From the NCBI RefSeq assembly GCF_044324875.1, contig NZ_CP172185.1: 64,000 nt of DNA; one strand, 5' to 3'. A program made the position numbers. This DNA is from Escherichia coli. Lineage in GTDB: Bacteria > Pseudomonadota > Gammaproteobacteria > Enterobacterales > Enterobacteriaceae. Of the stretch, positions 35,601-38,600 are shown one piece after another (the first letter of the stretch is position 1; each line of letters opens with the position of its first letter).

Positions 35601-38600
35601 GGGTAATGCGGTTAATAAAAAGAGTTGATCGGTAGTGAAATTAAAACCGATTTTATTGAGATTAACAGTAACTGCGCTAAATAGCATCCAGACACAGAAG
35701 GCAAGAAGTAGACAACTGACTGATATCCAGAGGTTTCTTCGAGCAATATGTTTTCCTTTATTTTCCCAGAAGGCCGGATTTTCTGGTTTCCAGTCGCGCA
35801 AAAGATAACGACTAGTTTTCTCATTTTGCAGTGCCATATTGTTCCTCACATGTACACATTGGTAATGAAAAAAAGACAAAACAGGAGGTAAGGCGCAATA
35901 GCCAGTTATTAGAATTAAGGATGAATTAGGTGAAGTGCTGATTGAAAGAATAGATAAGAAAGCGTAACCGCGGGGGCAGAATGGGGATTAAACAGACAGA
36001 TATGTGTTACTAAATGTAACTAACAAGCTAACCATTAAACGGATGTTAAGCTATGTATGTGGATTTGCCCCTATATTTCCAGACACCTGTTATCACTTAA
36101 CCCATTACTGGCTTGCTGCCGTAGATATTCCCGTGGCGAGCGATAACCCAGTGCACTATGCGGATGCCATTCGTTATAATGCTCGAACGCCTCTGCAAGG
36201 TTCTTTGCTGCCGTTAACCCGTCTGGTTTGGGCATGACACTGATGTAGTCACGCTTTATCGTTTTCACGAAGCTCTCTGCTATGCCGTTACTCTCCGGAC
36301 TCCGCACCGCCGTGCTCTTCGGTTCAAGCCCCAACATCCGGGCAAACTGCCGTGTTTCATTAGCCCGGTAGCATGAACCATTATCCGTCAGCCACTCTAC
36401 TGGAGACGCCGGAAGCTCGTTGCCGAAGCGGCGTTCCACCGCTCCCAGCATGACGTCCTGTACTGTTTCACTGTTGAAGCCGCCCGTAGTGACCGCCCAG
36501 TGCAGTGCCTCACGGTCACAGCAGTCCAGCGCGAACGTGACTCGCAGTTTTTCTCCGTTATCACAGCGGAACTCGAACCCGTCAGAGCACCATCGCTGAT
36601 TACTTTCTTTCACAGCCACTCTGCCTGTATGTGCCCGTTTCGATGGCGGTACAGCAGGTTTTCGCTCAAGCAACAGCGCATTCTGGCGCATGATCCGGTA
36701 AACACGTTTGGCATTGATCGCAGGCATACCATCAAGTTCTGCCTGTCTGCGAAGCAGCGCCCATACCCGACGATAACCATACGTTGGCAGCTCTCCGATA
36801 ACATGGTGTATACGGAGAAGCACATCCGTATCATCAGTGTGACGACTGCGGCGGCCATCCATCCAGTCATCGGTTCGTCTGAGAATGACGTGCAACTGCG
36901 CACGCGACACCCGGAGACAACGGCTGACTAAGCTTACTCCCCATCCCCGGGCAATAAGGGCGCGTGCGCTATCCACTTTTTTGCCCGTCCATATTCAACG
37001 GCTTCTTTGAGGAGTTCATTTTCCATCGTTTTCTTGCCGAGCAGGCGCTGGAGTTCTTTAATCTGCTTCATGGCGGCAGCAAGTTCAGAGGCAGGAACAA
37101 CCTGTTCTCCGGCGGCGACAGCAGTAAGACTTCCTTCCTGGTATTGCTTACGCCAGAGAAATAACTGGCTGGCTGCTACACCATGTTGCCGGGCAACGAG
37201 GGAGACCGTCATCCCCGGTTCAAAGCTCTGCTGAACAATTGCGATCTTTTCCTGTGTGGTACGCCGTCTGCGTTTCTCCGGCCCTAAGACATCAATCATC
37301 TGTTCTCCAATGACTAGTCTAAAAACTAGTATTAAGACTATCACTTATTTAAGTGATACTGGTTGTCTGGAGATTCAGGGGGCCAGTCTAGTATGCATGT
37401 CATGATCCAACCCTTCAGATGATGAATCCAAAGGGTTTATATTTTCAACAAGACCAGACACTTATAGAATTAGTGATGATTTATTCACTGAAAAGGCCAT
37501 GAGCTGGAGGAAAACGATCTGTCCAGAAAGTCTATCGGTTCCTCTCTTATCGCCTCATTGTAATAATCGTTATTACAGTAAGTATTGTTTATTTCATCTA
37601 ATGTCATATTTTTAATTTTTATATTCATCTGATTTACAACTTCTTCTGTTTTATAAGTGTGTATATTATGTGGGGTATATGCTTCTTTAATAGTATAGTG
37701 AAACAATTCGTTATCCACATCTACTCCTTCAGAGTGAATTTCAAATGCACCAGGCGAAAGAATTGCCAGGCCAGTATTAAGCTTAAGTGCTGGGGAAAAT
37801 AAATTAAATAACATGAGCTGCATAGTAGGGCAATTGTTCTTCCCAGAAACATTTAAAAAATTTAAGTTTTTGCTCTGTTTTATTATGGGGAATAAAGTTC
37901 CAATATCGGACGTATTCTTAGTGTCAATGCGGGTTATTTTATTATTGTCCAGCCTTAAACTTTTGATAGATGAAAGATAAGTCAGGAAATGAAGGTTTAT
38001 TTTTTCCAACTGATTGTTCGCAGCGTTTAATGTCTGAATATTGCAGAAGTTGCTAAAGAATATTTTAATTTCAGAAAGCAAGTTGTTGTTGATAAGTAAC
38101 GTATTCAAGTTGGGAAATAAGGTATTATGTAAACTTGTTAGTTTATTATGGGATAGATCCAGAAGTAAGAGCTCATCTTTATTTCCTGCCACAATATCAG
38201 TTAATTGATTGTGGCTGAGATTCAGGTACTGCAGCCTTTCGCAACATTCTAATTGCACAAACTCTAGTTGATTATGTGCCGCACTAAAATAAGTAATTGA
38301 TGAAAGCCTATCTATATCAATATTTCTGAGAGAATTATTATTCATAGATATATGTGTAATGCTTACATTTCTACCTTGAGGAAAATTTATTGACTCAAGA
38401 GCATTACTATTCAGACTAAGGTTGATGAGTCTATCGTAGGTGGTTGCATCAAAATGTTTGAGTTGGTTCTCATCAAGATTGATAGAGGTGAAGTTTTGCA
38501 GTCCTGGTGGTTGGGTAGTTAAATTAAGCCCTGATAAATCAATATCATTCTGTTTCGACAAAAAAGCACAATTTATCCTTTTAGCGGCTTCGTTTCGGCA

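Follow-up and report, generated by a model that had tools for sequence, protein, structure and literature searches.

The window analysed here, a 64,000-nucleotide stretch of the Escherichia coli contig NZ_CP172185.1, contains the narU gene followed by the nitrate reductase Z genes, two LRR genes and, between these two groups, a complete copy of IS2 (Table 1). The original prediction had placed an intact IS2 at this position, 222 bp upstream of narU and with its transposase genes on the narU strand. This arrangement was borne out in every respect: narUZYWV lies on one side and the two LRR genes on the other, narU and the transposase genes share the minus strand, the right inverted repeat (IRR) end of the element points toward narU, and, as the narU ATG at 35837 agrees with the RefSeq 1389-nt CDS, exactly 222 bases separate the ATG from the IS2 tip.

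Island-less B2 strains, for example ABU 83972, are homologous only up to position −186 relative to narU, and IS2 sits 36 bp inside the narU-proximal edge of a low-GC porin/LRR island (31–39% GC, against ∼52% for IS2). RNA polymerase holoenzyme binds the narU-yddJ spacer in vitro, and the motif TTCACC...TCTAAT was given for this spacer by genomic SELEX (PMC3946193). We found no mapped narU transcription start in the literature searched, which offered only this SELEX-based prediction, and an Rfam scan of the narU upstream region detected no known RNA element. On the island side, the insertion lies 15 nt past a hairpin (hairpin base at 37409, target site at 37395), the 5′ base of which, at 37437, is the equivalent of T1538580 in BW25113. 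This site, which has the wild-type T in the window, is 42 bp beyond the tip of the left inverted repeat (IRL) and is now located 1.3 kb from narU. The T1538580C mutation, at −263 to narU, is reported to increase the narUZYWV transcripts by as much as 10-fold and to sweep in the presence of ciprofloxacin (PMC11417348). The insertion parts narU from this site, the only upstream one shown to affect narU expression. Finally, the LRR gene next to the insertion is frameshifted by an A7-to-A6 change at 38678–38683, in comparison with the 418-aa gene of strain ETEC1738.

Table 1. Features at and around the IS2 insertion (positions in the window)
Feature	Position	Strand	Remarks
Complete IS2	36060..37390	minus	1331 bp; IRR toward narU (lower coordinates), IRL toward the LRR genes (higher coordinates)
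IRR, right inverted repeat, 41 bp	36060..36100	minus	outward −35 TGGAAA, 17–22 nt from the tip, which serves the minicircle junction promoter
IRL, left inverted repeat, 42 bp	37349..37390	minus	A32G relative to K-12
orfA (InsC/IS2 TnpA repressor)	37299..36934	minus	121 aa, open
orfB (InsD/IS2 transposase catalytic part)	36976..36071	minus	301 aa, open
A6G (A AAA AAG) programmed −1 frameshift site	36976..36982	minus	IS2 positions 409–415; yields 409-aa OrfAB
Target-site duplication GTATG, narU-side copy	36055..36059		5-bp direct repeat
Target-site duplication GTATG, LRR-side copy	37391..37395		5-bp direct repeat
narU	34449..35837	minus	462 aa, intact; then narZ, narY, narW and narV, all intact
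Ancestral narU upstream region, 186 bp	35838..36023	minus	in all E. coli including island-less B2 strains; stays beside narU
Predicted sigma-70 promoter of narU, TTCACC-N15-TCTAAT	35908..35934	minus	−98 to −72; retained between IS2 and narU
Porin/LRR-island strip, 36 bp	36024..36059		separates the IS2 tip from the ancestral narU region
Hairpin, 12-bp stem	37409..37437	minus	just 3′ of the LRR gene stop
LRR gene (EspR1/YddK-like)	37485..38741	minus	upstream of the insertion; stop 89 bp from IS2
Second IS2 copy	14483–21164	minus	same orientation as the 36060–37390 copy; broken by nested IS66-family and IS21-family elements

A complete IS2 and its empty target site

IS2 belongs to the IS3 family; it transposes by a copy-out/paste-in mechanism and generates a 5-bp duplication. 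The element upstream of narU is a complete IS2 (IS3 family, IS2 group), and its length, ends, open reading frames, protein profiles and duplication all fit this assignment. Its IRR tip, TGGATTTGCCCC..., starts at 36060 and its IRL tip, ...GGGGGCCAGTCTA, ends at 37390. The two ends, TGGATTTGCCCC... and TAGACTGGCCCCC..., are each exact over 26–27 nt, and the imperfect 41/42-bp repeats that bound the element were detected as a terminal inverted repeat of 33 nt with 79% complementarity. In an NCBIfam profile search, OrfA matched NF006928 ('IS2 repressor TnpA') with 276 bits against a curated cut-off of 229, and OrfB matched NF006918 ('IS2 transposase TnpB') with 713 bits against a cut-off of 597. 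With both inverted repeats, orfA, orfB and the A6G site present over 1331 bp, the element is indeed intact, as had been proposed. The A32G change in the IRL is common to both IS2 copies of the window. Judging from its intact parts and from the identical copies found at many different sites, this copy is probably still active in transposition.

The GTATG duplication announced by the original prediction flanks the element on both sides and is present in a single copy at the unoccupied site of ETEC1738. Mapped to this site, the left and right flanks (30 nt each) show 0 mismatches and overlap by exactly 5 bp, which identifies GTATG as a true target-site duplication and not a chance repeat. The suggested comparison with strains lacking the insertion thus gave a precise empty site in close relatives, and the immediate flanks are 99.8–100% identical in many strains; the best 25-kb matches are 97.5–97.9% identical at high coverage. 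Among 5,426 complete E. coli genomes, not one has IS2 at exactly this junction, which is also absent from the GTDB species representatives, and the ten contigs encoding an identical NarU protein all have an unbroken intergenic region of 312–315 bp. The IS2 allele upstream of narU matches copies in numerous other chromosomes and plasmids at 100.0% identity (rounded to one decimal). Together with the perfect duplication and the empty site, this indicates that the insertion is recent.

Repeated insertions upstream of narU

In four other lineages, IS2 has inserted independently at distances of 179, 239, 315 and 377 nt to the ATG of narU, each time with its own duplication, and at least three different IS2 alleles are represented among the insertions. 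All five IS2 copies fall within 199 bp and have the same orientation, with the IRR toward narU; no copy in the opposite orientation was found in this strip, the only one being 2.6 kb away. Moreover, two lineages have IS1 at 191 and 268 nt from the ATG, and the duplication of the latter covers T1538580. The duplications at the five IS2 sites (GTATG, AAATG, CAACC, TTCAC and CTTAT) share no apparent target motif, and IS2 is reported to favour curved targets (PMC3299598).

A 226-bp strip upstream of narU is disrupted in 61 of 4,252 island-bearing genomes and a control strip in very few, a contrast that is only rough since the control strip is confounded by the other island boundary. IS2 occupancy is ∼7 times the genome-wide average (5 genomes observed for 0.75 expected, Poisson P ∼0.001), on rough statistics in which the region was chosen post hoc and genomes, not events, were counted. 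The strip is probably a local landing zone for insertion sequences, to which selection may contribute. Simple tolerance does not account for the uniform orientation of five out of five IS2 copies. This uniformity hints at selection for read-out transcription or at an orientation-specific target preference.

Consequences for narU expression

The island-side upstream DNA, including the −263 site, has been pushed 1336 bp farther from narU, with IS2 sequence of ∼52% GC taking its place, and the narU coding sequence, its 5′ leader and the predicted core promoter are untouched. An effect on the expression of narU-narZYWV, as originally proposed, is plausible from this layout. An effect on the adjacent LRR gene, which had also been suggested, is unlikely because IS2 is located downstream of both the stop codon and the 3′ hairpin; this gene is, in addition, frameshifted.

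We searched the junction for a hybrid promoter, defined as an outward −35 in the IS end and a −10 hexamer in the flank at a distance of 16–18 bp. The position of the TGGAAA hexamer in the IRR was deduced from the 17-nt spacer rule established for Pjunc (PMC3299598). At the window junction, the candidates CATACA, ATACAT and TACATA agree with the −10 consensus at 3, 2 and 3 of 6 positions, respectively, and none of them pairs T at position 6 with A at position 2; candidates at the other four IS2 junctions reach at most 4/6. A hybrid promoter was therefore rejected as a shared mechanism, as no convincing −10 exists at Pjunc geometry in any of the five junctions. A consensus scan of 36060–36210 did not reveal a complete outward promoter on the minus strand either. 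In a published reporter assay, the outward promoter activity of the IS2 right end was undetectable, and this end has the lowest propensity to gain a promoter (PMC12095673). The promoter that IS2 itself carries is a weak one, under repression by OrfA (PMC3299598). The scan of 35700–37700 turned up no terminator-like site, and thus none between orfB and narU, so that read-through from IS2 is possible.

The evidence on an effect points both ways: the displaced −263 site and the possible read-through speak for one, and the retained 186 bp, the predicted promoter, the lack of a hybrid promoter and the silent IS2 right end all speak against a large one. We consider it probable that the insertion arose when an active IS2 allele in wide circulation entered a landing zone by simple transposition in recent times, that narU keeps its own promoter and that the effect is modest. 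According to this reading, narU would be deprived of any control exerted by the island-side DNA, whatever its nature, and no hybrid promoter would be built. The transposase transcript runs toward narU, and weak read-through transcription from IS2 may reach the gene; the net change in narU expression would probably be modest and may be upward. The insertion would owe its persistence to the strip being both a preferred and a tolerant landing zone for insertion sequences.

An alternative is that IS2 upstream of narU was selected for raising or de-regulating narUZYWV, by removal of a negative element on the island side (the hairpin region at −263, or silencing spreading from the 31–39% GC island), by transposase read-through, or by both. 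This would parallel the ciprofloxacin-selected T1538580C mutation and the IS activation of bgl, flhDC, fucAO and acrEF. It is in line with the clustering and common orientation of the five independent IS2 insertions, the two IS1 insertions, the −263 mutation with its up to 10-fold effect and its sweep, the lack of a predicted terminator between orfB and narU, and the intact narUZYWV of the window. However, the orientation bias amounts to P 0.03 in a one-sided test only, none of the five junctions has a good hybrid promoter, the right end of IS2 shows no detectable outward activity and has the lowest propensity to gain a promoter, and the promoter of IS2 itself is both weak and OrfA-repressed. 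Moreover, narZ is annotated as a pseudogene in the IS2-bearing ETEC4068 lineage, where activation of the reductase cannot be the benefit, the insertions are rare (5/4,252 genomes) and show no clonal expansion, and H-NS was not flagged for the narU-yddJ spacer in the SELEX table (PMC3946193). On balance, we regard selected activation as unlikely. The broader proposal, in which the narU-proximal island edge would be an orientation-biased IS2 target under positive selection, the 'cryptic' narUZYWV operon being switched up by lost negative control together with read-through as an IS route to the T1538580C phenotype, appears distinctly doubtful to us.

The opposite effect would be expected if the main narU promoter lay upstream of −222, near −263 or in the form of read-through from the LRR gene, in which case the insertion would have a polar effect and reduce expression. 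More generally, island-bearing strains may have the promoter or a needed activator site in this upstream part, and IS2 would then uncouple it from narU-narZYWV as a step in the decay of an operon that can be dispensed with. The sole cis element with experimental support is indeed upstream of the insertion. Transcription of the LRR gene is directed toward narU, and the hairpin at the 3′ end of this gene has no U-tract, making ancestral read-through into narU conceivable. The frameshift in this neighbouring gene and the inactivation of narU or narZ in other strains (IS1 in narU of EECO1006, narZ pseudogene in ETEC1738) are also consistent with decay. However, in ∼1,170 genomes that lack the island, narU is maintained with no shared upstream sequence beyond the 186 bp, which argues that the promoter lies within these 186 bp; this is where a promoter is predicted, in a spacer that RNA polymerase holoenzyme binds in vitro, and the five nar genes of the window are all intact. 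A knock-down of the operon is therefore, in our opinion, rather improbable. Even less credible, to the point of being very improbable, is that the two direct IS2 copies bracket 21165–36059 as a composite transposon or an IS2-bounded mobile or amplifiable segment with narUZYWV. Their common orientation and the A32G change in both IRLs would suit such a structure, and the copies could recombine to delete or duplicate the 15-kb interval. However, each copy is flanked by a perfect 5-bp duplication of its own (TTATA and GTATG), indicating that the two arose by separate simple insertions; nested elements interrupt the distal copy, and the genes in between occupy their usual chromosomal context. As the copies share no single outer duplication, the arrangement IS2-narUZYWV-IS2 was rejected as a composite transposon, and recombination between them is possible.

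A recent simple transposition remains our preferred reading, and the insertion adds, modestly, one more copy of a known element at a locus of limited wider interest. The narUZYWV genes form a poorly understood stress and stationary-phase nitrate system, the up-regulation of which was recently linked to early ciprofloxacin adaptation (PMC11417348). The interest of the locus lies further in the separation of narU from the one upstream site shown to act on its expression, and in several unrelated E. coli lineages in which IS2 or IS1 entered the same 200 bp independently. Should these insertions change narU expression, they would exemplify, in nature, IS-driven regulatory tuning at the border of an island; if expression is unchanged, the locus would only be a tolerated landing zone.

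Comparison with known systems

The element itself is a textbook insertion sequence with nothing new in it, and its allele is distinct from that of K-12, yet common. Like the window copy, IS2A of K-12 (insC1/insD1, NC_000913 381260–382590) has 1331 bp, inverted repeats, orfA/orfB with the A6G frameshift and a 5-bp duplication. The two differ at 25 of 1331 positions (98.1% nucleotide identity), changing 8 OrfAB residues, and narU of K-12, unlike that of the window, is without any IS2.

At bgl and flhDC, operons that are silent or weakly expressed are activated by IS1 or IS5 inserted at a distance. IS5 also activates from a distance at fucAO (PMC11894529). As at narU, independent insertions of more than one IS type are scattered in these systems over a short AT-rich upstream region. 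However, the narU insertions are rare in the population and are known here from position and population data; moreover, a silencer can usually be disrupted by an IS in either orientation, whereas the IS2 orientation at narU is uniform.

In the hybrid promoters created by IS2 at ampC (Jaurin & Normark 1983) and acrEF, as summarised in PMC9330008, a weakly expressed gene also lies downstream and an IRR with an outward −35 faces it. In contrast to these cases, the flank in the window has no usable −10 at 16–18 bp, and the insertion is ∼120 bp upstream of the predicted native promoter, not inside it. A parallel at the locus is the T1538580C mutation, which affects the same 100-bp island-side strip upstream of narU and shows that this strip influences narUZYWV expression (PMC11417348); it is, however, a point mutation, located in K-12 at the outermost base pair of the hairpin, whereas in the window the whole strip has been moved 1.3 kb away.

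An intact IS2 upstream of narU

The window carries a complete IS2 of 1331 bp at 36060-37390, as the original prediction held, and both ends, the reading frames and the target-site duplication (TSD) were verified (see table). The plus-strand start is the tip of the right inverted repeat (IRR), TGGATTTGCCCCTATATTTCCAGACA, the end is the reverse complement of the left (IRL) tip, TAGACTGGCCCCCTGAATCTCCAGACA, and the terminal inverted repeat was also recovered by independent inverted-repeat detection. In ETEC1738, a strain without this IS2, the 30-nt left and 30-nt right flanks map with 0 mismatches and overlap by exactly 5 bases; therefore, the GTATG duplication was made by the insertion. 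The orfA and orfB products score above the NCBIfam curated thresholds for IS2 TnpA and TnpB. OrfAB has 8 substitutions with respect to K-12, and the element differs from K-12 IS2A at 25 positions. Copies with 100% identity to this allele occur in many E. coli chromosomes and in many plasmids of E. coli and Salmonella; the allele is thus common and evidently mobile.

Exactly 222 bases separate the narU ATG from the IRR tip, and the transposase genes lie on the narU strand, reading toward narU. Distance, strand and neighbours (the nitrate reductase Z cluster and the LRR genes) had been correctly described. Downstream of narU, the genes narZ, narY, narW and narV are all open. On the other side of IS2, 89 bases lie between the TSD and the end of a leucine-rich-repeat (LRR) gene at 37485. 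The effect on this gene also envisaged in the original prediction is unlikely, because IS2 lies downstream of its stop codon and of a hairpin, and because the gene has an A7-to-A6 frameshift at 38678-38683 (a sense-strand run of six A versus seven in ETEC1738), near codon 20 of the 418-aa ETEC1738 reference protein. This change may reflect a true pseudogene, phase variation or an error in sequencing the homopolymer. The corresponding LRR gene of O157 genomes carries the annotation EspR1, a type III effector.

The proposed comparison with strains lacking the insertion recovered the empty site in most of the 5,426 complete E. coli genomes, with flanks up to 99.8-100% identical to the window, and none of these genomes has IS2 at the exact site. 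All 10 contigs encoding a NarU identical to that of the window have an uninterrupted intergenic region of 312-315 bp, and the junction was not found among GTDB species representatives. The absence of the junction elsewhere, the perfect TSD and the 100% allele identity indicate a recent, strain-specific event. For window 24000-48999, the best high-coverage matches among complete genomes of E. coli reach no more than 97.5-97.9% identity over 25 kb, while several strains match the 1.5 kb surrounding the insertion at 99.8%; the region is mosaic.

A second IS2 is interrupted at IS2 position ~326 by an insert of 5343 bp (14809-20151) flanked by an 8-bp duplication, CCATTATC; with the IS66- and IS21-family genes inside the insert, this suggests that three insertion sequences are nested one in another. 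A composite transposon formed by the two IS2 copies is ruled out by the separate duplication at each. The copies are direct repeats (20152-21164 versus 36378-37390, 98.9% identity over 1013 bp) and bracket ~15 kb including narUZYWV. Through homologous recombination between the two, the nitrate reductase Z cluster could be lost or amplified in tandem. Elsewhere in the window, Rfam hits above the gathering score are the Hfq-binding sRNA STnc490 (146 bits) and a SECIS element within fdnG (84 bits).

Features of the window and insertions near narU in other strains
Feature	Position	Strand	Remarks
Second IS2	14483-21164		same orientation as narU-side IS2; own TTATA duplication
IS21-family IstA/IstB	15161-17579		inside 5343-bp insert
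IS66-family TnpA/TnpB/TnpC	17608-20121		inside 5343-bp insert
narU	34449-35837	minus	1389-nt CDS, agrees with RefSeq annotations
Motif pair TTCACC...TCTAAT	35908-35934		inside retained 186-bp ancestral block
Porin and LRR-gene island	36024-41510		approximate limits; 31-39% GC
TSD GTATG	36055-36059 and 37391-37395		both sides of IS2
orfB	36976..36071	minus	open, 301 aa
A6G frameshift site	36976-36982	minus	yields 409-aa OrfAB
orfA	37299..36934	minus	open, 121 aa
Hairpin	37409-37437		12-bp stem, conserved; after LRR stop codon; no U-tract
SECIS element	43285-43343	plus	within fdnG
STnc490	47533-47656	plus	sRNA
IS2, ETEC4068 / ETEC4075	179 nt from narU ATG		TSD AAATG
IS1, PSS-08-2	191 nt from narU ATG
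IS2, this window	222 nt from narU ATG		TSD GTATG
IS2, F829	239 nt from narU ATG		TSD CAACC
IS1, 300081	268 nt from narU ATG		9-bp duplication GGTTACATA, covers T1538580
IS2, 2018-11-1BCC	315 nt from narU ATG		TSD TTCAC
IS2, SW070912	377 nt from narU ATG		TSD CTTAT
IS2, PSS-08-2	2104 nt from narU ATG		TSD TGCCG

The island border and the displaced upstream site

When the empty site was reconstructed over 400 bp and searched against the 5,426 genomes, ~4,180 matched over the full length and ~1,200 only over the first 186 bases beside narU. The latter are island-less strains such as ABU 83972, in which yddG directly precedes narU; the island is missing from ~1,170 of the 5,426 genomes (B2-type). 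Homology to ABU 83972 ends at -186 from the narU ATG (window 36023), and the ABU sequence beyond is the yddG 3' flank, found at window 41500-41589; therefore, the porin and LRR-gene island (for its GC content, see also PMC3079680) was inserted between yddG and narU. IS2 lies 36 bp within the island, at its narU-proximal edge.

For the narU-yddJ spacer, genomic SELEX lists the TTCACC...TCTAAT pair as a predicted sigma-70 promoter (PMC3946193), and a second SELEX study reports holoenzyme binding there (PMC5493296). From this motif in the retained 186-bp block and the binding in the spacer, we infer that narU retains its predicted core promoter. A 2024 study described an intergenic narU-activating SNP, T1538580C, in BW25113 (PMC11417348). 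T1538580, at -263 relative to the narU ATG in that strain, aligns with window 37437, 42 bp past the IRL tip, and IS2 therefore puts a further 1336 bp between narU and this element, as well as all other island DNA. The same base forms the outermost pair of the hairpin, whose folding exceeds that of shuffled controls by a wide margin (z = -2.8 in the window, -3.4 in K-12) and in or at which the IS2 of F829 and the IS1 of strain 300081 are inserted.

Recurrent insertions beside narU

Searching with the entire IS2-plus-flanks segment revealed 6 genomes with a same-orientation IS2 near narU, and these insertions, each with its own 5-bp duplication, represent at least three different IS2 alleles. 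When IS2 was inverted in the query as a control, solely one clone matched (E50/E57/E67/E20), with IS2 2618 nt away. Five independent IS2 insertions, window included, fall in 199 bp, with the IRR toward narU in 5/5 (one-sided P = 0.03). On the basis of 18,735 chromosomal IS2 places in the 5,426 genomes, 0.75 genomes with IS2 per 200 bp are expected versus 5 observed (Poisson P ~0.001, for a region chosen post hoc). The island-side 226 bp are interrupted in 61 of the 4,252 genomes carrying this strip; interruption appears to be almost absent from an equally long strip upstream of the porin gene, a control confounded by the other island border. We therefore regard the narU-side strip as a genuine local IS landing zone, through either target preference and tolerance or positive selection; IS2 is reported to favour curved DNA (PMC3299598).

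The operon is sometimes inactivated in other strains: in EECO1006, IS1 lies within narU, at its 5' end (positions 3453-4220 of locus L007), and ETEC1738 and ETEC4068 (L002 and L006) have narZ annotated as a pseudogene.

Possible consequences for narU expression

The IS2 minicircle junction promoter requires a 17-nt spacer, which a 1-bp junction provides (PMC3299598), a rule that places the IRR -35 (TGGAAA) 17-22 nt from the tip. With this spacing, the -10 candidates in the window flank score 3/6 (CATACA), 2/6 (ATACAT) and 3/6 (TACATA), and the best at the other four clustered junctions reach at most 4/6. Consensus scans detected neither an outward promoter in the IRR end nor a terminator in 35700-37700. 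A deep mutational study detected no promoter activity in the last 150 bp at the right end of IS2, and of the five ends tested, this one was the least likely to gain a promoter (PMC12095673). Weak read-through into narU from the OrfA-repressed IRL promoter is possible.

The best-supported reading is that an ordinary IS2 inserted recently, with a neutral or mildly regulatory effect, at an island border prone to IS insertion, whereby narU would keep its own promoter and lose island-side control. That IS2 insertions adaptively activate narU is a live minority view, in line with the clustering, the uniform IS2 orientation and the published SNP; however, no outward or hybrid promoter was found, the alleles are rare and one IS2-bearing lineage (ETEC4068) has a narZ pseudogene. 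A polar knock-down of narU by IS2 is less likely, since island-less strains manage on the shared 186 bp. The element itself and its mode of insertion are known, and insertion sequences are often found upstream of genes; the novelty lies in the particular site and in its place within a strip hit recurrently by IS2 and IS1, adjoining a published narUZYWV regulatory site.
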